Shown: positions 5,827 to 48,429 of the stretch, in pieces | How the letters are laid out: the number at the start of each line of letters is the position of its first letter | Numbering within the stretch: position 1 is the stretch's first letter | Assembly (NCBI GenBank): GCA_016205975.1 | Contig: JACQSK010000021.1 | Coordinates: 36,324-100,323, forward strand | Source of the DNA: Candidatus Uhrbacteria bacterium | Lineage (GTDB): Bacteria > Patescibacteriota > Patescibacteriia > UBA9934 > GWF2-40-263 | DNA length: 64,000 nt | Direction of reading: 5' to 3' | Notes under the pieces: generated by a model | The model's input: only the letters and a program-made list of their open reading frames with translations | Told to the model about the DNA's origin: nothing | Databases searched by the model: none | Position numbers and translations under genes: made by a program

Positions 5827-6183
5827 CTAATTTTTTATCGTCAGACGTTTAAGGCGCGGGGAGCGTTGTTTGTTTTTCGGCAACATGCGAGAGACAGCCT
5901 CCCTCAAGATCTTGGACGGGTCCGTTGCCATGAGTCCCTTGAGCGTGCGCTGTTTCAAACCGCTCGCGTAGGTCGTGTGCCGATAGTAGACCTTGGACTC
6001 CTTGACCGGATGGATTTTCATGCTTGCAGCGTTCACCACTTGCACGAAATCGCCTCCGTCCACGTTGGGAGCGAACGATGCCTTATGCTTACCGATCAAA
6101 AGACGCACGACCGAAGTCGCCAGGCGTCCGGGGACTTTCCCTTCCGCGTCGATGGTATGGATGTCGCGAGTGGCGTCTTTCAT
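5827..6183 (-). CDS. rplM: 50S ribosomal protein L13
   Basis: 118 aa; MKDATRDIHTIDAEGKVPGRLAT...YRHTTYASGLK matches L13. Confidence 0.95.
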   Translation of the reverse strand: MKDATRDIHTIDAEGKVPGRLATSVVRLLIGKHKASFAPNVDGGDFVQVVNAASMKIHPVKESKVYYRHTTYASGLKQRTLKGLMATDPSKILREAVSRMLPKNKQRSPRLKRLTIKN

Positions 6184-6530
6184 ACGAGTTCAATGTTCAC
6201 CATTTCCGCGCCGTCATTTTTTCGCGGCGCCAGCTTCACGATGCGCGTGTAGCCGCCCGGGCGCGTCCCGTAGCGCGGGCCCAGTACTTCCAGGATTTTT
6301 TTGACGGGATGCTCCGTGTAGAAAAACGCCAGGAGCTGGCGGCGCGCCGCGAGCGTTGGCTTCTTGCCAACGGTGATCGCTTTTTCCACCAGCGGCCGAA
6401 CGGCCTTGGCCTTGGCCTGCGTCGTCTTTATCTTCTCATACAAAATCACGCTCGCCGCCAGATTGCGAAGCAACGCCTCGCGCGGCGCTTTCTCTCGGTC
6501 CAAGATTTTTCCTTTGTTTCGATGACGCAT
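6180..6530 (-). CDS. rplQ: 50S ribosomal protein L17
   Basis: 116 aa; MRHRNKGKILDREKAPREALLRNLAASVILYEKIKTT is the L17 N-terminus; directly downstream of rpoA. Confidence 0.95.
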   Translation of the reverse strand: MRHRNKGKILDREKAPREALLRNLAASVILYEKIKTTQAKAKAVRPLVEKAITVGKKPTLAARRQLLAFFYTEHPVKKILEVLGPRYGTRPGGYTRIVKLAPRKNDGAEMVNIELV

Positions 6531-6538
6531 AGACCTTT

Positions 6539-7249
6539 CTAACCCTCCTGTGACTCGCTGCGCGTGCCAGGCGTGAGCAGCGCAAAAGAATCGATCAATA
6601 GTTTGGCAGACTGTTCGACGGCTTCCTGCGGCGTGACCGTGCCGTCCGTTTCAATGGTCATGATGAGCTTGTCGTAGTTGGTGATCTCGCCCACGCGCGT
6701 ATTCTCCACGCGGTAGCCGACGTTCCGGATCGGCGAGAAGAGCGCATCGATCGCGATCGTGCCAAGCTCCTGGACCTCGTTCACGCGCTCCTCGGTGGGC
6801 GAGTATCCGCGTCCGCGGCGCACCGTGAGCTCCATCTCCAGGCTCGCGCCGTCTTCCGTTACGGTGGCGATGACCAAATCGCTATTCACAATCTCGACGT
6901 CCGCGTTGGGCTGGATGTCGGCGGCGGTCACGCTCTTGGCCCCTTTCACCGAGAGGGTCAGCTTCACGGGCTCGTCGGAAAAACATTTTAACCGCAGCGA
7001 CTTCAGATTCAAAATGATCTCCAGCGCGTCCTCTTTGACACCCTTCACTGCCTGGAACTCGTGGTTCACGCCTTTCATCTTTACGGCGGTCACGGCCGCG
7101 CCGGGAAGCGAAGACAAGAGCACACGGCGCAAGGCGTTGCCAAGCGTCGTGCCGTATCCATGAAAACAAGGCTCGACAACCAAGATTCCCTCGTGAGGGC
7201 GGCTGCCGGCTTCGTATTGGATGCGCGATGGAAGAAGGATGTTCTCCAT
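6539..7249 (-). CDS. rpoA: DNA-directed RNA polymerase subunit alpha, N-terminal domain only (no alpha-CTD)
   Basis: tool ORF 6539..7369 trimmed to MENILLPSRIQYEAG... at 7249; alpha-NTD dimerisation/assembly region recognisable; stop lies 8 nt before rplQ, so no CTD is encoded. Confidence 0.85.
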   Translation of the reverse strand: MENILLPSRIQYEAGSRPHEGILVVEPCFHGYGTTLGNALRRVLLSSLPGAAVTAVKMKGVNHEFQAVKGVKEDALEIILNLKSLRLKCFSDEPVKLTLSVKGAKSVTAADIQPNADVEIVNSDLVIATVTEDGASLEMELTVRRGRGYSPTEERVNEVQELGTIAIDALFSPIRNVGYRVENTRVGEITNYDKLIMTIETDGTVTPQEAVEQSAKLLIDSFALLTPGTRSESQEG

Positions 7250-30512: not shown

Positions 30513-31730
30513 CTAGACTCCTGGAAGCCGGACCGTTTGTTCTGACTCCTGAGGCGCAGGAGAAAACACCCGCTTATCCGGCCAGTGGTGAACCGTGCGC
30601 AACGAAGCAAGATAGGCCCCTGACCGCTCATCGAGCTCGTGCGGGTGCCCTGGGAGCAGGTCGAGTCGCTCTTTCATACCAAGCATCTTCGCCATGCCGT
30701 TTAAGGTACGCGCGTAGTTGGTAGCGTTCAACAGGTCATTGGAAGACCGCTGGTCAATTGGGTCTGAGGCAAGGAGTCGCTCGGCGGCCGTGCGGGCGCC
30801 GGTCCATTCATTTTCTCCGAACGGATCAACAATCAGGTACGTCCACTTCCCTTCCTCGTTCCTGTACACGCGAACATTCCCGCCGCCGGCCATGTCGAGC
30901 ATCTCGTGCGTATTCACGGTGAAGGCCATCAGGCGACGCGTGAGATCGCGCAGGACGTCCGCGAGCTCATGATCCTGTGCGGCCTCTTCAAGCAGATGTA
31001 TCGTGCCCACGTGGAGGAACTTATAAAACAGGCTTGCGTCAAACGGTTCCTCCTCGCTGAACGCCATCCGGTTGAGCCGCTGGTACTCAGATACCGGGAT
31101 GTCGTAGCGCTCCACGTAACGGAACCCGAACGAGTGCACGTCTGGGTTGTGGCCCTCTTCTTTCTTCTCCGTTCTCGCCGCCTCTGGGATCGTCTCTTGA
31201 TAATGGACGATCGTCGGGACGCGAATGGTCGAGGCGGGAGCGAGGTCTGCCAGAGTATTGTGTTCGAGGATGGCTTTGGCGACTTCAGGCGTGACCGGCA
31301 CATCGCGCAGCGTTGCACGCGTCGTGAGCAAGTGAGAAGCGGGAAACGAACGGCGCAAGGCCGTCATGAACGCCGCCTCCCGCTGGAGCGCCTCTTTCAT
31401 CGCCTCGCGTTCGTCTTGATGCTCGTGCATGGCCTGTGCGCGATCGCGCACGCCCGCGTCGTCTGCGGTGGGGAACGGCTGAGCCTCCCAGCGCGCAAAC
31501 GCCTCGCGCAGCACGCCGCGCTTGAGATGGTACATGTCGGCCTTCAGGACCGCACCGCGGTGCGTTCCCTCGCGACCTTCCTTCTGGCGTACGCGAAAAA
31601 CGACGCTCTCACCGCCGTGGCCGGCGTATTCCAGATTGTCTGAAAGCAACGGATCGCGCGTGCGTTCCTCGAGGTGTTTAGCCGCAAGTTCTGAGACGCG
31701 ATCGGATGATTCGTGAAACATAAATCCCAT
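30513..31730 (-). CDS. hypothetical protein with protein-kinase-like fold features
   Basis: 405 aa; Gly-rich loop-like YAGHGGESVVFRV, VLK Lys, catalytic-loop-like MLDMAGGGNV and DPFG (DFG-like) in kinase order; tentative. Confidence 0.45.
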   Translation of the reverse strand: MGFMFHESSDRVSELAAKHLEERTRDPLLSDNLEYAGHGGESVVFRVRQKEGREGTHRGAVLKADMYHLKRGVLREAFARWEAQPFPTADDAGVRDRAQAMHEHQDEREAMKEALQREAAFMTALRRSFPASHLLTTRATLRDVPVTPEVAKAILEHNTLADLAPASTIRVPTIVHYQETIPEAARTEKKEEGHNPDVHSFGFRYVERYDIPVSEYQRLNRMAFSEEEPFDASLFYKFLHVGTIHLLEEAAQDHELADVLRDLTRRLMAFTVNTHEMLDMAGGGNVRVYRNEEGKWTYLIVDPFGENEWTGARTAAERLLASDPIDQRSSNDLLNATNYARTLNGMAKMLGMKERLDLLPGHPHELDERSGAYLASLRTVHHWPDKRVFSPAPQESEQTVRLPGV

Positions 31731-32140
31731 TATCCGGCTTTTCTTGAAGCCTTGTGCGCAAGCGCCTCGTCGTACATTTTTTCCGCGGCTCGGCTGATCT
31801 CATCAAAGTGGCGCTTGGCCTGTGAGAGGTCGTTCACGGTCGCCTCCAGCGCGTTCAAAAAATCAATCGCCTGACGCACAGACTCGGGTACGCGCGAATG
31901 AATAAACTCGTCTTGTTCTTTTTCGTCCTCAATCGCGTCCATGCGATCGATCCATGGTTGAATCTCCGCATTCAAGGCGTTGGTCATCTCTTTGAGGCGA
32001 CCCAGTTCCATGAGGATGCGGGCGACTTCGAGCTGTGCGGACTTGAACGTCTCACGAAGTTCGTTCGGACGATTCTTTGGCAGCTCCGCGGCCGTGGCGT
32101 AGGCGAGCGCTTCTTGCTCGCTCAGATGTTCATGGGACAT
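31730..32140 (-). CDS. hypothetical alpha-helical protein
   Basis: 136 aa, charged/helical; stop/start abut neighbours; no motif. Confidence 0.4.
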   Translation of the reverse strand: MSHEHLSEQEALAYATAAELPKNRPNELRETFKSAQLEVARILMELGRLKEMTNALNAEIQPWIDRMDAIEDEKEQDEFIHSRVPESVRQAIDFLNALEATVNDLSQAKRHFDEISRAAEKMYDEALAHKASRKAG

Positions 32141-32702
32141 AGGTGAGTGCTTCTATCATCTTCTTTGTCTTCTCTTTTGGCAACCCCATGAGGCTTTCCC
32201 ACTCGCCCTCAAAATGCATGAACGGTTTGAACAGCGGATGCTCAGCGGCCAGCGCGCCGGCATAACGGAAGACTTCGCCGGATTCCACGAACGTCTGAAT
32301 GTTTTCCTCGGGGATCGGATCAAACGTCACGATCACCTCGTCCACGGCGCTTAAACGCTTCCCTGTCGCCGTGTTGCACACGACCGTGCATGAGGTGGCG
32401 ATTTGCGGACTGGTCGAGAGTGTCGCAAGGAACGCGTAGGCTTCTTCTTTTGTCCGCGGCTTCTCGCGCACAACGCCCGCCACCACAATGACCATGTCGC
32501 TGGTGATGACGATGGCCTCGCCCTCGACGCGCCGAAGCACCGCGTCCATCTTCGCCTGTGCAATCGCTTCGACAAGCTGGCGCGAGTCGTCTCGACGAAT
32601 CGCCCGCTCGTCGATGTCTGGAGAGATCACAGAAAACGAAATGCCCATGCTCGTCAGCACGGCCTTGCGGTAGTGAGAGCTCGAACCCAGGATGATGGTC
32701 AT
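32130..32702 (-). CDS. maf: Maf-family nucleoside triphosphate pyrophosphatase
   Basis: 190 aa; MTIILGSSSHYRKAVLTSMGISFSVISPDIDER... matches the Maf N-terminus. Confidence 0.85.
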   Translation of the reverse strand: MTIILGSSSHYRKAVLTSMGISFSVISPDIDERAIRRDDSRQLVEAIAQAKMDAVLRRVEGEAIVITSDMVIVVAGVVREKPRTKEEAYAFLATLSTSPQIATSCTVVCNTATGKRLSAVDEVIVTFDPIPEENIQTFVESGEVFRYAGALAAEHPLFKPFMHFEGEWESLMGLPKEKTKKMIEALTYVP

Positions 32703-32704
32703 AG

Positions 32705-33247
32705 CTAGAAGCCTCTGCTTTGCTTTCGCATTTTGTACAGGCGTTCTGTAAACCCGCCGTCTTTCACGAACTGTTGTTCAAGCGAGCGCAGCTGTTGGTC
32801 AAGCAAGTAGTTGGCCTGGTGGATTAAGCAAATGGCGGTGTTGGCCGCAGACTCCGGGCGTTCGCAATAGGTTCGATAGGTCGTATAGGACCTATTGCCT
32901 AGATAGGCTAATTTCCTGATTTGTAAAACGTTTGGGTGCGCCTTCTCCCACAGGACAAGCTGACGCTGGCGCAGGTAGTCTTCAAAGTCGAGCAACAATT
33001 CTTCTAGGCTCGCACGAGCCACGCCGATGAGTTTCAGCTCTGTCTTCTTGGACGTGCCCGACGCCTGGCAGCCCTCTGCTATGTTCTGTCGCCCCGAGCG
33101 CGCCGCTTGGACCATTTGGTCCTTCATTCGGTAGTCCTTCACAAAGCGGCTACAGAAATCAACCGTCAGGTCGTAAACAATGGTCGTTGTCTGAAACGAT
33201 TTGAGATCGCGGTACCCGCCGTGAGCTGGAATGAGTGTTTCCTCCAT
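32705..33247 (-). CDS. four-helix-bundle protein (23S rRNA IVS protein family) with C-terminal suffix domain
   Basis: core ...IVYDLTVDFCSRFVKDYRMKDQMVQAARSGRQNIAEGCQASGTSKKTELKLIGVARASLEELLLDFEDYL matches the family; tool ORF starts at GTG 33286 inside a repeat, so I prefer ATG 33247 (MEETLIPAHGGY...). Confidence 0.65.
   Translation of the reverse strand: MEETLIPAHGGYRDLKSFQTTTIVYDLTVDFCSRFVKDYRMKDQMVQAARSGRQNIAEGCQASGTSKKTELKLIGVARASLEELLLDFEDYLRQRQLVLWEKAHPNVLQIRKLAYLGNRSYTTYRTYCERPESAANTAICLIHQANYLLDQQLRSLEQQFVKDGGFTERLYKMRKQSRGF
32866..32912. repeat. short dispersed repeat with 9-bp periodicity, copy A
   Basis: gcaataggttcgataggtcgtataggacctattgcctagataggcta; shares ataggtcgtat...ggacctattgcc with copy B. 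Confidence 0.6.
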
Positions 33248-33281
33248 AGGTCGTATTGGTCCTATGGGACCTATTGCCCAT
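33243..33281. repeat. short dispersed repeat with 9-bp periodicity, copy B
   Basis: ccataggtcgtattggtcctatgggacctattgcccatg; direct repeat of copy A with one extra 9-nt unit; contains the secA stop codon and the 4HB gene's upstream start. Confidence 0.6.
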
Positions 33282-36024
33282 GACACTTCTTAAACTTTTT
33301 GCCAGAACCACAATAACACGGGTCGTTGCGGCCGACCTTCGCTTGCGGGGAACCAGGCTGAAGCCTGGGGCTACCATCCGTACCGCGAGCGACTATCGTA
33401 TTGGCAGCACCCTGAAGCGTCACGCCCGCTTTCTGAAACACGGATCGGCCGAGCTCCATCTGCACTTTCATGTCCACGGCGTGCTTGGCGTACTTAAAAA
33501 ACGTATACGTGATCTCATGGTTGATGGAACCCAACAGATTTTGGAACAGGCCAAACCCTTCCCGCTTGTACTCGACTAAAGGATCGCGCTGGCCGTAGCC
33601 CTGCAGACCGATACCTGTGCGCAGAGCGCTCATGGCGGCCAGGTGATCAATCCACAGGGTGTCGATGGATCGCAGGATCACGCCGCGTTCGATGTTGTAG
33701 GTGCTCTTGCGATCCTCAAAAACATCGTAGAGCTTGTCATACTGCGAGCGGACGGCCTCCATGATTTTCACGATGAACTCGGTCCGTCCTTGGGCAAGCG
33801 CTTCGCGATCTTGCGCGGCAGAAAGCCCGATGCCCTGCAGACCCTCCTTCTGTTCCTCTGAAAGCGCCACGATCGTCGAGACGGTCTCGACGATTTCCTT
33901 TCGATTCCAGCCGCCGTCATCCTCTACGCCTCCCTCACTGGTGTGGAACAACACGATCTGTTCCACCTCTCCCTCGATCACGTCCAGCACGCGGTCGCGC
34001 AGCTTCTCGGGCTCCTGCGCGAACAGCTCGAGGATCTCACGCCGTCGCGCATAGATCACCTCACGGTGCTTGTTCAACACATCGTCATACTCCAAGAGGT
34101 GCTTGCGCGAATCGAAGTGATACCCCTCCACGCGCGTCTGCGCCTTTTCAATGGAGCCGGTGATGAGTTTGTTCTCAATGGGCATGTCGTCGGGAATCCC
34201 CAGGCGGTCCATCATGCCGCGCGCGCGATCAGAGCCGAAGATGCGCATGAGCCCATCCTCCATCGACAGATAAAATTGCGTCGAGCCGGGATCGCCCTGG
34301 CGACCAGAACGCCCGCGCAGCTGGTTGTCGATGCGCCGCGCGTCATGGCGCTCGGTGCCGATGACGTGCAGGCCTCCCAGCTCCTTCACGCGCGCTTCCG
34401 CCTCCGGCGAGCCGGGATTTCCTCCGAGCTTGATGTCCACGCCGCGCCCGGCCATGTTGGTCGCGATCGTGACCGCGCTGACCTGCCCGGCTTGGGCGAT
34501 AATGTCGGCCTCGCGATCATGGTTCTTGGCATTGAGCACCTCATGGCGCACCCCCGCGTTGGTTAAGAGGAGTGACAACACTTCGTTTTTCTCCACGCTG
34601 ACCGTGCCCACCAACACTGGCTGACCCTTTTGCTGCTTCTCTTGAATGTCGCGCACGACTGCCTGAAACTTTCCCTGCTCGCTCTTAAAAATCTTGTCGC
34701 CCAGGTCCGCGCGCGAGACCGGTTTGTTCGTCGGAATCTCGACGACTTCCAGGTTGTAGATTTTAGAAAACTCCTCCGCCTCGGTGGCGGCCGTTCCGGT
34801 CATCCCCGCGAGCTTGTGGTACATGCGGAAAAGATTTTGAAAGGTAATCGTCGCCAGCGTCTGGCTCTCACGCTGAATCGCCACGCCCTCCTTGGCTTCG
34901 ATCGCCTGGTGGATCCCCTCGGAAAACCGACGGCCCGGCATGAGACGCCCCGTGAACTCGTCCACGATAATCACCTCGCCTTCCTTGATGACATAGTGGA
35001 CGTCCTTCTGATAGTTGGCTCGCGCGCGCAGAGCCGTGTCGGCGTAGCGCTGATACTGTCCTTGGTCCACGGCGTACAGGTTTTCGATCGAGAGCGCGCG
35101 CTCGATATGCTCGATGCCCGCCTCCGTCAGCGTCGCCGCGCGCATTTTTTCGTCTACGTTGTAATCCTCGTTCTCCTTGAGGCTTGCCACGATCTGTGCA
35201 AACCGGTAGTAGAGGTCATTCGATTTTTCCGCGGGCGCGGAGATGATGAGCGGCGTACGCGCCTCGTCAATCAGGATGGAATCCACCTCGTCCACGATCG
35301 CATAGTGCAGCTCGCGCATGACGCACGCGTCTATGGAGGGTGCCATGTTGTCGCGCAGGTAGTCGAATCCAAACTGGTTGTTGGTGCCGTAGGTGATGTC
35401 CGCCTGGTACGCCTCGCTCCGAGATACGGGCCGCAGGTAATCCTCGCGCACATGGAACGAGCCGGTCGCATCGCGCTCTCGATCGGCCATCTCCCCATCG
35501 AGTGTTTCCTCGGCGTGCTTGAACGCGGGGTCATAGATGAGCCCGCTCTCGTGCTGGATCACACCCACGCTCATGCCCAAGGCATGATAAATCTGTCCCA
35601 TCCACACCGCGTCGCGGCGCGCGAGATAATCGTTCACCGTCACCAGATGGCAGCCCTGTCCGCGCAAGGCGTTCGTGTACAAGGCGAGCGTGGAAGTGAG
35701 CGTCTTGCCTTCTCCGGTGCGCATCTCCGCGATCTGTCCGCGATGCAGCGCGAGTCCGCCGACGAGCTGTACGTCGAAATGCCTCTGCCCAAGCGTGCGC
35801 CTGGCCGCCTCACGCACCACGGCAAACGTCTCATACATAAGATCGTCGAGCGACGCCCCTTGCGCAAGCTGCTCTCTAAAACCAGAGGTCTTTGCCCGAA
35901 GCTCCTCATCCGTGAGCGCCATAATCGTGGGCTCCAGTGCGTTGATCTTCTGCACTTCCCTCTCAAACGCCGCGAGCATTTTCCTATTCGGATCTCCAAA
36001 CAAAAGTTTCAAAAATTTCTGCAT
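33271..36024 (-). CDS. secA: preprotein translocase ATPase SecA
   Basis: 917 aa; N-terminus MQKFLKLLFGDPNRK..., DEAD-like motor motifs, C-terminal zinc-binding tail CYCGSGKKFKKCHG. Confidence 0.95.
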   Translation of the reverse strand: MQKFLKLLFGDPNRKMLAAFEREVQKINALEPTIMALTDEELRAKTSGFREQLAQGASLDDLMYETFAVVREAARRTLGQRHFDVQLVGGLALHRGQIAEMRTGEGKTLTSTLALYTNALRGQGCHLVTVNDYLARRDAVWMGQIYHALGMSVGVIQHESGLIYDPAFKHAEETLDGEMADRERDATGSFHVREDYLRPVSRSEAYQADITYGTNNQFGFDYLRDNMAPSIDACVMRELHYAIVDEVDSILIDEARTPLIISAPAEKSNDLYYRFAQIVASLKENEDYNVDEKMRAATLTEAGIEHIERALSIENLYAVDQGQYQRYADTALRARANYQKDVHYVIKEGEVIIVDEFTGRLMPGRRFSEGIHQAIEAKEGVAIQRESQTLATITFQNLFRMYHKLAGMTGTAATEAEEFSKIYNLEVVEIPTNKPVSRADLGDKIFKSEQGKFQAVVRDIQEKQQKGQPVLVGTVSVEKNEVLSLLLTNAGVRHEVLNAKNHDREADIIAQAGQVSAVTIATNMAGRGVDIKLGGNPGSPEAEARVKELGGLHVIGTERHDARRIDNQLRGRSGRQGDPGSTQFYLSMEDGLMRIFGSDRARGMMDRLGIPDDMPIENKLITGSIEKAQTRVEGYHFDSRKHLLEYDDVLNKHREVIYARRREILELFAQEPEKLRDRVLDVIEGEVEQIVLFHTSEGGVEDDGGWNRKEIVETVSTIVALSEEQKEGLQGIGLSAAQDREALAQGRTEFIVKIMEAVRSQYDKLYDVFEDRKSTYNIERGVILRSIDTLWIDHLAAMSALRTGIGLQGYGQRDPLVEYKREGFGLFQNLLGSINHEITYTFFKYAKHAVDMKVQMELGRSVFQKAGVTLQGAANTIVARGTDGSPRLQPGSPQAKVGRNDPCYCGSGKKFKKCHGQ

Positions 36025-36034
36025 ACGGCGAGGA

Positions 36035-36066
36035 TTATGCTATTTCTCAATGAAAAAATCAACTCG
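36035..36066 (-). promoter_or_regulatory. secA promoter candidate (TTGATT-17-CATAAT on minus strand)
   Basis: minus-strand read: gagTTGATTttttcattgagaaatagCATAATcctcgccgtATG; very short leader. Confidence 0.4.
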
Positions 36067-36079
36067 AAAAAATCAACTC
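36052..36079. repeat. perfect tandem 14-bp repeat (gaaaaaatcaactc x2) overlapping the secA -35 region
   Basis: 36052-36065 and 36066-36079 identical. Confidence 0.8.
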
Positions 36080-36106
36080 TACAAAAAGCGAGCCGTTTGG
36101 CTCACT
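36080..36106 (-). terminator. intrinsic terminator after hpf
   Basis: minus-strand RNA: gugagcc-aaac-ggcucgc followed by uuuuuguag; 14 nt after the hpf stop. Confidence 0.55.
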
Positions 36107-36119
36107 TCATCAGGGTCTC

Positions 36120-36467
36120 TCACGACTTCCCTGGTCGCACGCTCTTCTGAGACCGTTCCTTCAGCTTATCTTTGTATTCTTTAATCTGCCGACGCATCTG
36201 GTCGCACGCTTGCGTGATCGCGTGATAGAGGTCTTCCTCTTGGCTGGTGGACCTCAGTTCGGCGCCCGCCACGTGCAGCTGGAACTCGGCCGTAAAATAC
36301 GGGCCCTTGGCATGGTGCTTGGTGGATTTGCCCACTTCCACGCGCATCTCGGCGACGGGTTCAAAATCTTTCGTCAGGCGCTCGAGCAGAGCAGATTTCG
36401 ATTGGACGCGCGCCTTGATGGCGTCGGTGAGCGGGAGGTTGGTGCCTTTGATGGATATGATGCGCAT
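36120..36467 (-). CDS. hpf: ribosome hibernation promoting factor (HPF/RaiA family)
   Basis: tool ORF trimmed to MRIISIKGTNLPLTDAIKARVQSK...; short-form HPF. Confidence 0.85.
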   Translation of the reverse strand: MRIISIKGTNLPLTDAIKARVQSKSALLERLTKDFEPVAEMRVEVGKSTKHHAKGPYFTAEFQLHVAGAELRSTSQEEDLYHAITQACDQMRRQIKEYKDKLKERSQKSVRPGKS

Positions 36468-36501
36468 ATGGACGTAAAGGGTAAATGAATAGACAAGGGG
36501 A

Positions 36502-37458
36502 TCAGAAGCCGAGATAAGCAACTTCCTCCTGTAGCATTATACCAAACTCGTTACGAGCGCGAGTTTTAATGAGGGCGATCAGCTGGACGACGTCATCGGC
36601 GGCAGCGCTGCCGAGATTGACGACAAAATTTCCGTGCTTGTCGCTGATCTTCGCTTGTCCGATCTGCATCCCCTTCAGATCAAGCTGATCGATAAGCCAG
36701 CCTGCCGAGAGGCGACGCTCTGACCGCATCCTTGGTGGGATATCGAGTTTTTGAGACAGACGTTGCAGCTCGGCCTCTTCACGCACGTCGTAATTTTTGA
36801 ACAGGCAGCCAGCCGATCCGGCGTCCAGCGGCTGCGCGGCTTTGCGGCGCATGAGATGATCGTCGAGCTCGGCCTTCAGCTCCGATGCGTCACCTTCTTC
36901 CAGTGCAAACGTCGCGGACAGGACGATGTCTTGGCTGTGCTTGAGCGCGGACTCGCGGTAGCCGAAGGCAAGTTCTTCCTTATCGACCTTGTAGACCTTG
37001 TCATCTCTCAATACCTCCACGCTTACCAGCCGATCCTTGATCTCCCCTCCGAAGCAACCCGCGTTCCCGCGCACGGCGCCGCCGATTGTCCCAGGCAGCG
37101 AGATCGCCCAGGTGAGTCCCCTGAGCCCGGCGTTGCCTGTTGCGCGCGCGAGCGCTCCGGAGAGCACGCCCGCTTGTACCTGTACCGTTGTCCCGTGGAT
37201 CTCGTAGCTCCGCATCGCGATCTTGATGACGATGCCGTCGAATCCTGCGTCGCTTGCAAGCGTGTTTGATCCCCCGCCGAGGATGGCAACAGCCACTCGT
37301 GCCTCGCGCGCAAGGTGAATCACGCCCAAAAGTTCCTCAACGGACCTCACCTCCACCAGCCACTTGGCCGGCCCGCCGATGCGAAAGTTCGTATGCTTCG
37401 AGAGAGGCTCGTTCTCACAGACGCGTGATCCGACGATGGTTGAAAGACGGTCTGTCAT
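36502..37458 (-). CDS. murB: UDP-N-acetylenolpyruvoylglucosamine reductase
   Basis: 318 aa; FAD-binding NFRIGGPAKWLVEV... and MurB C-terminal domain. Confidence 0.9.
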   Translation of the reverse strand: MTDRLSTIVGSRVCENEPLSKHTNFRIGGPAKWLVEVRSVEELLGVIHLAREARVAVAILGGGSNTLASDAGFDGIVIKIAMRSYEIHGTTVQVQAGVLSGALARATGNAGLRGLTWAISLPGTIGGAVRGNAGCFGGEIKDRLVSVEVLRDDKVYKVDKEELAFGYRESALKHSQDIVLSATFALEEGDASELKAELDDHLMRRKAAQPLDAGSAGCLFKNYDVREEAELQRLSQKLDIPPRMRSERRLSAGWLIDQLDLKGMQIGQAKISDKHGNFVVNLGSAAADDVVQLIALIKTRARNEFGIMLQEEVAYLGF

Positions 37459-38813
37459 ACAAGTTTCCTCGCCACCTCGTCGATGTCCCCTGCTCCCATG
37501 ATGAGCAACACGTCACCCGACTCGACCAGATCACGCAGTGCTGCCTCGGCCGCGCGCAAGTCTTTTGCGAAGCGGACGTCCTTGGACGGGTCATCCTTCT
37601 TCATAGCTTCAGACAAATCGTGCGAGCTGACCTCTGCGTCCTCATTTCTTCCCGCGACGTCATAGATCTCCGCAAGGACCAAAGCGTCGGCGTGCGACAG
37701 GGCCTGTACAAACTCATTGAACAACTTTTTTGTTCGGTCGTGCTGGTGCGGCTGGTAGCACAACACCACGCGCCGACCGGGAAAAAACTCTCGCGCGGCC
37801 TCGATCGTAGCCGTGATTGCCGTGGGGTGATGGCCATAATCGGAGATCACCTCCGCGCCGTGCCACGAGCCCACGCGCTCAAACCGACGCCAGATGCCGG
37901 TAAAGTCGAAGAGCGCGCGGCGACAGGTTTCAAACGGCACGCCCAGCTCCATGGCAGCGGCCATGGCGCCAAGCGCGTTCATCGCGTTGAACGCGCCGGG
38001 CACACGCAGGCGCAGCTCGCCGTGACTGGTGCTGACGGTTTGTTCACCGTATTCCACCCTCCTCTGCAGCAAAGCATAGGTCCCATTGGTCCCATACGAC
38101 CCATACTGCACCGACCCATTGACCTCCAAATTTTTTGACACCGCGTCGTCCGCATTTAGCACCACCACGCCCTTGCCCTTGAGCTTGTCTACAAACTGTT
38201 GGAACGTTGCCTGGATGTGCGCGAGGTCGCGGTAGTAATCCAGGTGGTCCTCCTCGACGTTGGTCAAGACGATCATCTCGGGTTCAAGGTGGAGCATGTT
38301 GGCGCGATACTCACAGCCTTCCACCACAAAGAACCGTCCTTTTCCAAGCCGAAGATTTCCGTCCTTAAAGCTCGGGACGAGCGAGCCTACCAAGACCGTT
38401 GGGTCATAGCCGGCCGCCTCTAAGATCAACCCGAGCATAGCCGTGGTCGTAGACTTGCCGTTGGTGCCCGAGACAACGATCGTAGAAAACGCGCGTGACA
38501 GCTCTCCGAGAAATTCAAAATTGGAACACATGCGAATACCCCGCTCGCGCGCGGCCTGGCGCTCCACATTGGACTCGGGCGCGGCGGGCGTGTAGATGAG
38601 CAGGTCCACATCCTGTGCCACCTGTCCGGGCGCGTGGCCCGAGTACACCTGGGCTCCGCGGCGCGCGAGGTCGCGCGTCAGATCGCTCTCATGCACATCC
38701 GACCCGCTCACCTTAATCCCAGAGAGCAAAAACCACTTAGCGAGCGCGGACATGCCGATCCCGCCGATGCCGACGAAGTGAACGTAATGGATGCCTTCGA
38801 ACATACACGTCAA
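37455..38813 (-). CDS. murC: UDP-N-acetylmuramate--L-alanine ligase
   Basis: 452 aa; HFVGIGGIGMSALA (Rossmann N-domain), GTNGKSTT P-loop; 4-nt overlap with murB. Confidence 0.9.
   Translation of the reverse strand: MTCMFEGIHYVHFVGIGGIGMSALAKWFLLSGIKVSGSDVHESDLTRDLARRGAQVYSGHAPGQVAQDVDLLIYTPAAPESNVERQAARERGIRMCSNFEFLGELSRAFSTIVVSGTNGKSTTTAMLGLILEAAGYDPTVLVGSLVPSFKDGNLRLGKGRFFVVEGCEYRANMLHLEPEMIVLTNVEEDHLDYYRDLAHIQATFQQFVDKLKGKGVVVLNADDAVSKNLEVNGSVQYGSYGTNGTYALLQRRVEYGEQTVSTSHGELRLRVPGAFNAMNALGAMAAAMELGVPFETCRRALFDFTGIWRRFERVGSWHGAEVISDYGHHPTAITATIEAAREFFPGRRVVLCYQPHQHDRTKKLFNEFVQALSHADALVLAEIYDVAGRNEDAEVSSHDLSEAMKKDDPSKDVRFAKDLRAAEAALRDLVESGDVLLIMGAGDIDEVARKLV
38084..38120. repeat. short dispersed repeat with 9-bp periodicity, copy C (inverted orientation, inside murC)
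   Basis: cattggtcccatacgacccatactgcaccgacccattgacc; matches the reverse complement of A/B over ggtccNatacgaccNat (15/17). Confidence 0.5.
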
Positions 38814-38846
38814 GAATAGCGCGTCAATAAAAAAAGCGCTAGACGT

Positions 38847-40127
38847 CTAGCGCTGCGTGGTGCTTCGGATGACGCGCGGCTTGAGATGCGTGCGATCAAT
38901 CCACTTGAGCACTAAATTGTCGTGAACCGTATTCCAGACGACCGCCCCGTTCTCCGTATGGAGATTCCACGCAAGCGGCACGGCCGTGAGCCTGCGTCCG
39001 TGAACAATGGGCTGATCCCACACGCCGTCATGCACGATCACGGCGTCGATCCCACCGCTCTCGCTCACGAGCGCCTCGGACACGCGCAGCCCTTCGGCAA
39101 ACGCACGCTCCGTCGTTGCACTCACGAGGCGCTCATGCGTCTGACCTCCTTCCGTCACTCGGATACGAGCCGCGCACGAGGAACCGTCGTGCGACCAGAA
39201 AATGTCCTGGCGCGCGAACGTGAAGTGGCCCTCATGGAGAACCTCGTGGTTCAGCAAGAGCCGCCGCTCATCGCCCTTTGCCTCGCGCGGCCGCACGAGT
39301 GTCAGGAGCACCGCCTGCGTGGGCGAGCTCCAAACATCCTCGATCTGGCCGTCGATCAACAAGCTGAAAGGATCTCGACCCTTGAACGCACCAACCTCCA
39401 TGAGGCTTGACCGGTACGGCGTGCGCGTCGCCAAGAGACAGCGTCCCTGCCACTGCACCAGCCTCACGGCCGAATCATTCGACGCTCGCTTCGGCTCGCA
39501 AACAGGCACAAGCGCGGCAAAGGGCTCGATCCCGTTCTCCGCCACGCGGTAGGCGTAAGGGCGGCCGTCAAGCTCCTCGATGACGCACAGCGTCCCGTCC
39601 GCATACGGCTCGACCTTGGATCCTGGCCTCACAGGGAACAACCCCCATGGCGTGATGATCGCGTTCTCCCCTGGGAAGCGTTCACTCTCCCCAACGGGCA
39701 AACGGACAAAGCCATTGCCATAGGAACCCTTGATGCGCTCCAGGCAATAGAGGAACGTCCGCGCCTGCGGAGCCACGAGCCAAACGCCCGGCGGATAGCC
39801 GCTCACGCAGCCCCAGACGAGCACGTGGCGCTCTCCGATCTGCAGAATGCGCGTTCCCCCATCCTCCTTGGAGGGAGAGCGCTGAAAACGAATGTCTGCG
39901 TCAAACGACGAATGGAACAACTCGTCCTCGTCGCAGCACGCGCGCACCATCGCCATCTGTGAACCCGTCGGCGTGACAGCAAGCTGATCCCCGGCAATCA
40001 AGCCTCGGAGCATCTGCGGATTTGGGGTGATGGGGAGGGTGCAGATCGTGTGCATCTCGCCGCTGAACGAGGGCTCGGTGAGATGCACGACATGATGACT
40101 GGGCCGGGGAGCGCCTATCGTTGCCAA
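38847..40127 (-). CDS. hypothetical protein
   Basis: 426-aa ORF, protein-like, no assignable motif. Confidence 0.45.
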   Translation of the reverse strand: MATIGAPRPSHHVVHLTEPSFSGEMHTICTLPITPNPQMLRGLIAGDQLAVTPTGSQMAMVRACCDEDELFHSSFDADIRFQRSPSKEDGGTRILQIGERHVLVWGCVSGYPPGVWLVAPQARTFLYCLERIKGSYGNGFVRLPVGESERFPGENAIITPWGLFPVRPGSKVEPYADGTLCVIEELDGRPYAYRVAENGIEPFAALVPVCEPKRASNDSAVRLVQWQGRCLLATRTPYRSSLMEVGAFKGRDPFSLLIDGQIEDVWSSPTQAVLLTLVRPREAKGDERRLLLNHEVLHEGHFTFARQDIFWSHDGSSCAARIRVTEGGQTHERLVSATTERAFAEGLRVSEALVSESGGIDAVIVHDGVWDQPIVHGRRLTAVPLAWNLHTENGAVVWNTVHDNLVLKWIDRTHLKPRVIRSTTQR

Positions 40128-47598: not shown

Positions 47599-48429
47599 AT
47601 GCTGTCCTTTGATGACCTCCGTCGCCGCCTGTCCCTGTGGCAGACGACCGAACAACAGATCCACGCGTTTTTCCAGGCGCGTGGTTTTGTTCATGTGCGC
47701 ACGCCGATGCTCGTCCGTTCTCCCGGCATGGAACCCCATCTCGATCCGCTGACCACGCGGCTGCATCTGATGCACCCAGAGCGCACCCAAGACGCAGGCT
47801 TCATCACGAGCCCTGAGTATTCCATGAAGAAACTGCTGGGGGCGGGAATGAAAAAAATCTACACGATCACGCCCGTGTTCCGCGACGGCGAGGCGCTGGG
47901 CCCGCACAACTGGCCCGAGTTCACGCTGCTTGAGTGGTATGCGCCTGGCGGGTATGCAGAGCTGATGAATGAAACAGAAGATCTGTTGAAGTTCGTGCTC
48001 GATGATCAGACCCCTTGGCCCCATCTGACCTATGCGGCTGCGCAGGTCGACGCCTTCGGGCAACCGCACACCGAGCACAACCGTTTTTTTGTGACGCAGT
48101 ATCCGCCCGAACAGGCTGCGCTCGCGCGGCTTTCTGAGGACGGCCGCACCGCCGAGCGCTTTGAAGCTTTTGGCGACGGGCTGGAACTCTGTAACGGTTT
48201 TTGCGAACTCACGGACGCGCAAGAACAGCGTCGGCGGTTCGAGCTCGAGCAGGCAGAGCGGCGCGCCATGGGCAAACGCGTGTTTCCTCTGGATGAGGAG
48301 CTGCTCAGCGCCCTTGAAAAAATTGAAGGCCCCGTGTACGGAAACGCGCTGGGCCTTGACCGGCTAATCATGCTCAAGTACGCTATCGCCGACATCCGCG
48401 ACATCCAGATTCTTAACACGCTCACGTAA
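47599..48429 (+). CDS. epmA: EF-P--lysine ligase EpmA-like (truncated LysRS class II catalytic-core paralog)
   Basis: 276 aa; class II motif 2 FRDGEALGPHNWPEFTLLEWY and motif 3 GLDRLIML; no anticodon-binding domain; immediately upstream of efp. Confidence 0.6.
   Translation: MLSFDDLRRRLSLWQTTEQQIHAFFQARGFVHVRTPMLVRSPGMEPHLDPLTTRLHLMHPERTQDAGFITSPEYSMKKLLGAGMKKIYTITPVFRDGEALGPHNWPEFTLLEWYAPGGYAELMNETEDLLKFVLDDQTPWPHLTYAAAQVDAFGQPHTEHNRFFVTQYPPEQAALARLSEDGRTAERFEAFGDGLELCNGFCELTDAQEQRRRFELEQAERRAMGKRVFPLDEELLSALEKIEGPVYGNALGLDRLIMLKYAIADIRDIQILNTLT

Follow-up and report, generated by a model that had tools for sequence, protein, structure and literature searches.

Tandem arrays of a 9-bp palindromic unit in and around four-helix-bundle suffix-domain genes and elsewhere in bacterial genomes

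Background

Several kinds of short repeat or tandem recognition site are known in bacteria, and we compare with them here a family of 9-bp tandem palindromes found in 64,000 nucleotides of DNA from Candidatus Uhrbacteria bacterium (NCBI GenBank assembly GCA_016205975.1, contig JACQSK010000021.1, positions 36,324 to 100,323 of the forward strand). In this stretch, hereafter the window, whose own numbering we use, three arrays of the unit lie in and beside a four-helix-bundle (4HB) suffix-domain gene and inside murC.

Repetitive extragenic palindromic (REP) sequences and REPINs are single palindromic hairpins of 20-40 nt, present in hundreds of copies per genome, and RAYT is a Y1 HUH transposase flanked by the repeats. 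The parS element is a single 16-bp site near oriC, with one parS lying inside spo0J of B. subtilis. Rickettsia palindromic elements (RPEs) are 100-150 bp long, are confined to Rickettsia and have no associated gene; they insert in frame into protein-coding genes, essential ones among them, and are tolerated in surface regions. The short tandemly repeated repetitive (STRR) sequences of cyanobacteria are tandem arrays of heptamers, and uptake signal sequences (USS) and DNA uptake sequences (DUS) are found within coding sequence, where they favour certain frames, and at the 3' ends of genes, where they form inverted pairs. Tandem units of 7-8 bp make up the met-boxes of MetJ and the heptads of omega, which are promoter operators bound cooperatively by one dimer per unit, the met-boxes being palindromic. 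In diversity-generating retroelements (DGRs) the template and variable repeats are about 100 bp long and differ at adenines, and Avd binds nucleic acid.

The REP/RAYT, parS/ParB, RPE, STRR and USS systems each share some features with the arrays described here, and none fits. The associated gene family is already known and named (TIGR04258); the arrays themselves are apparently undescribed. Rfam searches, at a permissive E-value on positions 32000-39000 and at the gathering threshold on the whole window, gave one tRNA as the sole return, and thus neither a family covering the arrays nor an rRNA gene in the window. The literature search found no description of the arrays and no paper that names TIGR04258, TIGR02436 or 'four helix bundle suffix', the free-text comment of the TIGR04258 curators, which may mention a repeat-encoded spacer, being unread. 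PF05635 appeared in one DGR review, and none of the literature that matched the array sequences concerns these repeats.

Results

Three arrays of one palindromic unit

The arrays of the window, and the gene to which two of them belong, are as follows.

32866..32899, minus strand: array A, an in-frame linker array inside the 4HB-suffix gene; units ATAGGTCCT (32895-32887), ATACGACCT (32886-32878) and ATCGAACCT (32877-32869), minus strand
33245..33278, minus strand: array B, which flanks the 4HB-suffix gene on its 5' side; units ATAGGTCCC (33274-33266), ATAGGACCA (33265-33257) and ATACGACCT (33256-33248), minus strand
38076..38105, minus strand: array C, a solo in-frame array in murC; units, read on the minus strand, TATGGGTCG TATGGGACC AATGGGACC TAT
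32705..33247, minus strand: 4HB suffix-domain gene, 180 amino acids (aa), from the start codon ATG at 33247 to the stop codon TAG at 32707-32705; TIGR02436 plus TIGR04258, PF05635

All three are members of a dispersed family that is widespread across many bacterial phyla. The unit has the consensus A1 T2 a3 g4 G5 W6 C7 c8 t9 (ATAGGWCCT; capitals nearly invariant, lower case preferred), and with the AT of the next unit it forms the 11-bp palindrome ATAGGWCCTAT. Its position-frequency matrix is symmetric about W6, pairing G5 with C7, g4 with c8, a3 with t9 and T2 with A1'; W6 is A or T in >91% of units, the second G (G5) is invariant, and G4 is a G in only about 50-60%. Arrays consist of three units in the window and of 3 to 11 or more elsewhere, spanning 27 to about 100 bp.

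On the coding (minus) strand the order GTC, then GAC, then GAC/AAC is common to A, B and C. Array A encodes the linker N-R-S-Y-T-T-Y-R-T-Y (LGNRSYTTYRTY), which joins the bundle to the TIGR04258 suffix helix, and is enclosed by an inverted repeat, GCAATAGG...CCTATTGC. Array B is preceded by GGCA and followed, in register with its last unit, by the ATG of the 4HB gene (33247-33245), and positions 2-4 of its first unit are the stop codon TAG of secA (33271-33273). Array C shares the reading frame of A, xAT-AGG-WCC, and encodes Y-G-S-Y-G-T-N-G-T-Y at approximately residues 237-246 of MurC.

The first-pass annotation, made from the letters of the window, had described A, B and C as a dispersed family with 9-bp periodicity, and this much is sound: by pattern search, three-unit scan and shuffled control, the copies exist where it had placed them, far beyond chance. 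The sequence GGTCCNATACGACCNAT has exact matches at 32876-32892 (-) and 38088-38104 (+), and at up to two mismatches it occurs at six overlapping positions in A, B and C, versus 0.05 expected. Three tandem ATAGGWCC units were found only at A, B and C in the window, and shuffled sequence totalling 837 kb had none. Array C is also called by TRF, with period 9, and repeat grouping links all three copies; a weak fourth candidate at 48005-48042 turned out to be no array.

Other details of that description had to be revised. Array A was said to mark one end of the 4HB gene, but it lies within the gene, about 160 nt before the stop codon. The picture of a gene bracketed by A and B thus fails for A, which is an internal coding array common to the TIGR04258 family as a whole, and flanking arrays are present in only about 30% of the family. 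The extra unit credited to B is an alignment effect, A and B each holding three good units. Array B does contain the secA stop codon, as claimed, but hardly the start of the 4HB gene: the GTG at 33286 is very unlikely to be used, and because homologues start at ATG 33247 (MEETLIPAHGGYR, MEETLIP...), B is 5' non-coding for this gene and the supposed N-terminal peptide IGPIGPIRP is not translated. That C is inverted relative to A and B carries little meaning, because every unit is a palindrome.

Constraint at the nucleotide level

The constraint on the arrays is one of nucleic-acid sequence and not of protein. Linker tyrosine codons are TAT in 220 cases and TAC in 3, against 254 and 239 elsewhere in the same genes (p = 7e-45), and AGG accounts for 96 of the 105 linker arginines but for 145 of 1140 elsewhere (p = 3e-65); linker Asn/Asp is xAT in 76 of 78. 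Column by column, conserved residues draw on their whole set of synonymous codons, the commonest codon having a share of 0.24-0.81; the exceptions are the linker Arg (AGG 0.96) and the three linker Tyr (TAT 1.00, 0.97 and 1.00). The third codon positions of the linker Ser and Thr, by comparison, remain free. These frozen and free sites match, respectively, the invariant (A1, T2, G5, C7) and the variable (position 8) sites of the non-coding 5' and 3' arrays, whose position-frequency matrix is the same as that of the linker. The 5' arrays, moreover, are found in all three frames relative to the open reading frame (ORF). The similarity between copies is accordingly, as the first-pass annotation had supposed, a feature of the DNA and no coincidence of codons.

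Array positions across the gene family

A scan for relatives with one genome per species confirmed at least 579, and we analyzed the best 80 loci (64-76% protein identity; loci from all searches are cited by L numbers). They belong to Patescibacteria, Nitrospirota, Desulfobacterota, Acidobacteriota, Planctomycetota, Verrucomicrobiota, Bacteroidota, Chloroflexota, Spirochaetota and other phyla. The three-unit scan of these 80 loci gave 133 matches, against none in the shuffled sequence, nearly all at three fixed places: a linker array between bundle helices 3 and 4 (71 of 78 genes), an array just 5' of the start codon (22 of 78) and an array at or after the stop codon (23 of 78).

The flanking arrays are closely fitted to the ends of genes. 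In 16 of the 23 arrays on the 3' side, the first unit supplies T2A3G4 (or T2A3A4) as the stop codon of the gene. On the 5' side, the TAG/TAA of the first unit ends the upstream gene, which differs between loci, at no fewer than seven of them, just as it ends secA in the window. The ATG continues the register set by the last unit of the 5' array, and a gene 88% identical to ours (L081) has the same upstream array as B. No 3' array is present between the 4HB gene and maf in this genome.

In distant subfamilies the linkers reach 159 aa of the SDKSDRSD... type, built from the same unit (GATAAGTCC) in the same frame. A few Patescibacteria have an additional in-frame array (..YMTYKTNKSYRMT..) in the loop between helices 1 and 2 of the 4HB protein (L027:758-802, L046:1803-1838, L074:6101-6136). 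Damaged copies of the 4HB-suffix gene were also seen, with an in-frame stop right after the linker array (L032, ~6370), a stop in the suffix (L077, ~6480), a frameshift (L063, ~6230) or, about 0.8 kb upstream of the gene in L069, a 180-nt fragment of a second copy.

One homologue in a cultured organism, Prevotella nigrescens (NZ_CP082843.1; L325:4658-4745), is 38% identical and has no linker array. Directly past its stop codon lie two hairpins, nearly perfect and composed of CTAGGAAC-type units phased at 9 bp, unlike the canonical array; these palindromes may be a co-varying repeat type.

The 4HB-suffix protein

The protein scores above all three family cut-offs, with 81.8 bits for TIGR04258 (cut-off 40), 42.2 for TIGR02436 (24) and 42.2 for PF05635 (33.8). 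In the AlphaFold2 (AF2) model (pLDDT 86.8), helices at residues 16-35, 39-62 and 67-94 are followed by an inserted segment (about 95-130) with short helices at 105-113 and 121-128, the latter being the array-encoded YxTYxxY, and by the long suffix helix 131-163, which as the fourth helix completes an up-and-down bundle. It is this insertion, encoded by the array and placed between helices 3 and 4, that sets the TIGR04258 subfamily apart. The best Foldseek matches are Xcc0516 (2gsc) and BT_0352 (2rld), at probability 1.0 and a TM-score to the target of up to 0.82. The protein is basic (isoelectric point 9.2), and 16 Lys/Arg columns are conserved in the family.

Homologues 68-99% identical top the ranking in a search of 5.8 billion proteins, the named sources being Candidatus Uhrbacteria or other Patescibacteria, and identity across phyla is 65-88%. 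A search of 1.84 billion cluster representatives returned 3661 clusters at E <= 1e-3, of which 288 reach E <= 1e-30. None of the defence-system models in PADLOC matches the gene.

Arrays away from the gene

Metagenome contigs were scanned with ATANGWCCNATAHGWCCNATANGWCC, in which H bars G from the fourth position of the middle unit, and at least 120 loci were found. The H was required because a scan of viral contigs with three ATANGWCC units had been unspecific owing to collagen-like repeats: the 120 viral loci listed (L082-L201) are mostly unrelated (GPI)n genes of the tail-fibre type in phages and giant viruses, and no 4HB-suffix homologue is among them. A few viral loci (L091, L094, L099, L112) do resemble true arrays. 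A collagen-like G-X-Y coding repeat would have long in-frame runs of GGN-CCN-NNN with Gly at every third residue; for the arrays themselves it is ruled out by G4, which is G in only about 50-60% of units although G5 is invariant, by the invariant A1/T2 and by the frame N-R-S/Y-x-T.

Most arrays have no 4HB gene beside them. Among the 120 metagenome loci listed, 114 (~94%) are without it, and in the other six the match is the array of that gene itself. The ORFs around the arrays of the 114 fall into 166 Pfam families, of which only AMP-binding (4) and PF05635 (3) recur. Eighty-two of the 120 arrays are intergenic; where both flanking ORFs are present, 36 are co-directional, 9 convergent and 3 divergent. 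Long ORFs near these arrays can likewise end on the unit: of 120 such ends, 23 coincide exactly with T2A3G4 of the first unit, where the background is 1-5 per position. L014, L017 and L065 have solo intergenic arrays close to the 4HB gene as well. Two solo arrays of L014 (4490-4650 and 10870-11010; Pyrinomonadaceae) each lie at the apex of a long inverted repeat of CAGTGGT-type heptamers, a larger composite structure between genes.

The units of an array follow a polarity. The 59 metagenome arrays of three units comprise 28 that are homogeneous, 26 with GGTCC followed by GGACC, 2 with the reverse order and 3 that alternate, and longer arrays read TTTAAAA, TTTTTTAAA and the like. This T-to-A polarity would be expected neither from hairpin stability nor from simple two-fold binding.

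Where an array lies in frame in an ORF supported by Pfam, the frame is always xAT-AGG-WCC, encoding N/Y/D/H, then R/K/T/M, then S/T. The cases are two sites in MurC, five adenylation domains, and the linker and loop 1 of the 4HB protein. The adenylation domains read EKF-[NRSYKSYRTY]-YKTGDLA. In these domains, from nonribosomal peptide synthetases and acyl-CoA synthetases (L212:2757, L263:1953, L276:8516, L300:3219, L309), the array replaces the loop between EKF and YKTGDLA.

Array C, which occupies a variable loop of MurC, an essential enzyme, is a true solo array; its unit number shifts and in some lineages it decays. Uhrbacteria orthologues have the MurC array at the same place as DNA, with three units in L202 and L203 and four in L204. 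That of L203 reads TATGGGTCC AATGGGACC AATATGACC TAT, that of L202 is decayed, and the four units of L204, GATAGGTCCTATAGGACCAATACGACCTATG, are identical to array B of the window at 29 of 30 positions. Peptide expansions in two further orthologues (P0140, P0160) are consistent with about five units, and more distant orthologues have a shorter YGxDxxxDY. To the first-pass annotation, a sequence shared by MurC orthologues as a conserved coding feature would have spoken against a repeat; the orthologues do carry the sequence, but as a decaying DNA array of variable unit number and not as a conserved protein feature, and the reading as a repeat element is therefore supported. At a second site, near residue 405, INRSYxTNxTYA replaces IKKxDPxKDVRYA in a patchy subset of the Uhrbacteria orthologues, to which the MurC of the window does not belong. 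Carriers of this second site include P0122, P0124-P0126, P0132, P0133, P0141, P0142 and others, as well as L202:11280 and L203:11214.

Discussion

A proposed reader of the arrays

Our preferred reading, though a tentative one, is that the arrays are cis recognition sites for a conserved reader, most likely the basic, Avd-like 4HB-suffix protein. The arrays would act as cis-acting sites for a sequence-specific reader, and recognition would probably take place on double-stranded DNA, because the conservation is two-fold symmetric about W6 and because W6 takes either A or T and excludes G and C. The best candidate for the reader is the 4HB-suffix protein, which is related to Avd, an accessory protein of DGRs, because its gene is the only one linked to the arrays, because it is basic and belongs to the Avd family, and because its conservation across phyla parallels that of the array consensus. 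A site in and around its own gene would allow self-recognition or autoregulation, in the way of parS within parB/spo0J or REP sequences around RAYT. Unit number would change by slippage, and new places might be reached by insertion or recombination.

Several observations weigh against this reading. We know of no non-DGR member of the 4HB family for which binding has been shown, and the assignment of the reader is drawn from association and co-conservation only. The argument from co-variation has a single case, that of Prevotella (n = 1). Divergent spacers, where promoters lie, are depleted of arrays (3 versus 36 co-directional), unlike a classical operator, and the polarity (GGTCC)n then (GGACC)m (26 versus 2 in reverse) is not predicted by two-fold symmetric binding. 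Finally, local hairpins are predicted for all three copies in the window (z = -1.75, -3.0 and -2.4), so that a role in RNA or single-stranded form has to be kept in view.

A bolder version of the reader hypothesis is improbable in our estimate. It would make the arrays and the 4HB-suffix protein a site-reader system, and the arrays the first sequence-specific nucleic-acid target of the IVS-protein/Avd family (IVS, intervening sequence). Array sequence would be written by a templated process related to Avd-assisted DGR homing, replacing loops of similar length (MurC site 2, the adenylation domains) and landing on stop codons, with the copy in the 4HB gene as master template.

Genomic context and the possibility of a mobile cassette

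The first-pass annotation had suggested a small mobile or recombinogenic element. The neighbours of the 4HB gene in the window, all on the minus strand, are these.

32130..32702, minus strand: maf, beginning 2 nt past the 4HB stop codon
33271..36024, minus strand: secA, its stop codon within array B
36120-36521, minus strand: S30AE/HPF gene
36502-37458, minus strand: murB
37455..38804 (alternative start 38813), minus strand: murC, host of array C

The start of murC is probably ATG 38804, because the database protein that is 100% identical to it, from Candidatus Uhrbacteria, has 449 aa. Three ORFs in the flanking regions, at 30513-31730 (405 aa), 31730-32140 (136 aa) and 38847-40127 (426 aa), are conserved in position and have no Pfam match.

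As a mobile cassette, the 4HB gene would have arrays as recombination ends, being excised through its 5' and 3' arrays and integrated into solo arrays, which would be empty targets or scars. Several observations speak for such movement. Arrays abut start and stop codons at the frequencies given above, exactly at the stop in 16 cases, and solo arrays lie just past stop codons, where the cassettes are found. The gene is co-directional with its neighbours (downstream at 58 of 73 loci, upstream at 62) in operons that are otherwise unrelated: it stands between cas7 (PF05107) and cas4 of type I-C CRISPR-cas at 15-18 of the 73 loci, directly downstream of secA at four of 73 related loci, and elsewhere beside hsdS/hsdR, between two fumarase subunit genes and in other contexts. 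The association of PF05635 genes with cas loci has been published already (PMC3936711, PMC10910872). In the cas7/cas4 loci that have a 3' array, the start codon of cas4 falls within that array (MTY.., MTNKTY..). The cas7/cas4 loci are L007, L021, L024, L025, L031, L034, L037, L038, L042-L044, L049, L053-L057, L060-L062 and L069 (~6000-7200). Between loci of differing context, nucleotide similarity stops at the ORF borders, for example between L056 and L068 (87%). The secA-maf junction itself varies: relatives with the synteny murC-murB-hpf-secA...maf-secD have other genes in place of the 4HB gene found here (33271-32130), namely two ORFs of unknown function in L202 (15485-16545) and an ASCH gene with two ORFs in L204 (14513-16232).

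Other observations count against a cassette. The universal array is internal and not flanking, and each flanking array is absent from about 70% of loci. The 4HB-free secA-maf junctions of L202 and L204 have no array. Neither a recombinase nor a transposase family recurs among the neighbours at the 73 loci. Relatives of the gene are absent from the 2.9 million viral contigs searched and, save for the 38%-identical Prevotella homologue, from the plasmid collection. Imperfect homology of 27-45 bp is in any case a poor substrate for general recombination. In L081 (GCA_016235605.1, JACRJW010000023.1; 900-3035), the order array-4HB-maf is kept while a tyrosine integrase island with small ORFs takes the place of secA; the last ~30 nt of secA (..FDKFKRCHGT*) are fused to the 5' array, and homology with the window ends ~30 nt upstream of the array, which fits integration of the island at the 3' end of secA better than movement of the cassette. 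The suggestion of mobility thus keeps the variable secA-maf gene, the many unrelated operons and the similarity limited to the ORF; it loses by the empty junctions without arrays, the lack of an associated recombinase and the ~94% of sampled metagenome arrays that lie away from 4HB genes. We regard a mobile cassette as unlikely.

A possible role in transcripts

An action in RNA is, to our mind, about as doubtful. Hairpins in the transcript would stabilize or process polycistronic mRNA, like REP sequences or the RNase III sites in the stems of 23S IVS, or would occlude the 4HB start codon, possibly bound by protein. The arrays are found almost only in transcribed places, that is, at 3' ends, in co-directional spacers and in coding sequence, with just 3 of 48 spacers divergent, and the junctions of secA, the 4HB gene and maf have no predicted promoter or terminator. 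The predicted local hairpins of the window, the ATG that keeps the register of the 5' arrays, and the AUAGGUC-N6-GACCUAU formed by the first two units in nearly all linkers are what such a role would call for. Against this, homogeneous arrays, with GGACC throughout or GGTCC throughout, make up 52 of the 120 and can form no perfect hairpin, and W6 accepts A or T whatever its partner. The stem positions are invariant, so that they offer no covariation to use, and there is no Rfam match. The minimum-free-energy structure contains no long-range, IVS-like stem between B and A, and with z = -1.7 the 441-nt region shows no exceptional stability, which counts against an RNA element. Relative to transcription, solo arrays lie on the same strand in 10 cases and on the opposite strand in 23, with no consistent sense-strand orientation; the bias is weak and opposite to that of 5' arrays, and therefore lends no support to a role of the sense-strand RNA.

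The possibility of repeats without function

A selfish micro-repeat without function, spread by slippage, template switching and gene conversion, would account for the unit number, which is variable everywhere (3-5 in MurC, linkers of up to 159 aa, 3-11 in 5' arrays), for decay of MurC copies as in L202, and for arrays that land in all frames and are kept only where tolerated. The linker would then be an old insertion held at consensus by conversion. The persistence of one consensus in distant phyla, though, needs a conserved constraint, and conversion cannot explain frozen sites where the linker is the only array seen nearby. The strict tie to one gene family and the T-to-A polarity would likewise go unexplained, and we consider this account quite unlikely.

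Selection for peptides rich in Tyr, Ser, Thr and Arg, or mere codon coincidence, could appeal to the conservation of [ND]RSYxTYxxY in the family and to its partly helical state, modelled with good confidence, but is rejected as almost certainly wrong because synonymous sites are frozen only at array-invariant positions, non-coding arrays share the matrix, and 5' arrays occur in all three frames.

Significance

Proteins of PF05635 are very common and recur in rRNA, CRISPR-cas and restriction-modification operons, and they have no known function outside DGRs. A conserved nucleic-acid motif built into a large PF05635 subfamily, with synonymous sites frozen from Patescibacteria to Acidobacteriota, offers a testable hypothesis, that the protein reads the array. 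The arrays are also a cross-phylum class of repeat, without an Rfam match, that homology-based annotation has missed. They supply stop codons, and they add or replace peptide loops in essential enzymes (MurC) and in adenylation domains; when translated, they can give low-complexity peptides of the IGPIGP, SDKSDK and NRSYRTY kinds. Recognizing them would sharpen the calling of gene starts and stops, and changes in unit number could serve as a marker of recent sequence change.

Comparison with known systems

The 4HB gene is of the same fold family as the 23S IVS proteins and Avd (PF05635/TIGR02436), members of which are also inserted in CRISPR-cas and type I restriction-modification operons, but it lies between secA and maf and not inside an rRNA gene; an IVS lies within a 23S (or 16S) rRNA gene and is excised from the rRNA. 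It differs from a DGR in that no reverse transcriptase (RT) is adjacent, no pair of template and variable repeats is present and the differences between arrays are not adenine-specific; no RT family recurs among the neighbours at the 73 loci, and none is found among those in the window (SecA, HPF, MurB, MurC, Maf, SecDF and proteins of unknown function).

As repeats, the arrays resemble the REP/RAYT system in being short imperfect palindromes at gene 3' ends and in co-directional or convergent spacers (82 of 120 being intergenic), in their clustering, and in having an associated gene flanked by repeats. They differ in being tandem 9-bp palindromes, in occurring also in frame within proteins and in keeping one consensus across phyla. 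The linked gene encodes a non-enzymatic four-helix bundle and carries an internal copy, and no Y1 HUH transposase recurs near the arrays. With RPEs they share in-frame palindromic insertion into protein genes, at MurC sites 1 and 2, in the adenylation domains and, within the 4HB protein, at the linker and loop 1, but not the length, arrays being 27 to ~100 bp of 9-bp units and without an Rfam match. STRR, USS and DUS are likewise dispersed short units, tandem in STRR, of other unit length, sequence and taxa, and have no linked gene that holds the motif internally.

For a site with a reader, the nearest parallels are parS/ParB and the tandem operators. Like parS, the array is a palindromic site that would be conserved across phyla through a conserved reader, and it lies in coding regions, including the gene of the putative reader, where it constrains synonymous positions; unlike parS, it is tandem, its reader is hypothesized and it has no known link to origin or segregation. 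MetJ and omega differ in that the arrays avoid divergent promoter regions, and with omega, where the order and orientation of units matter, there would be a precedent for the T-to-A polarity of the arrays.

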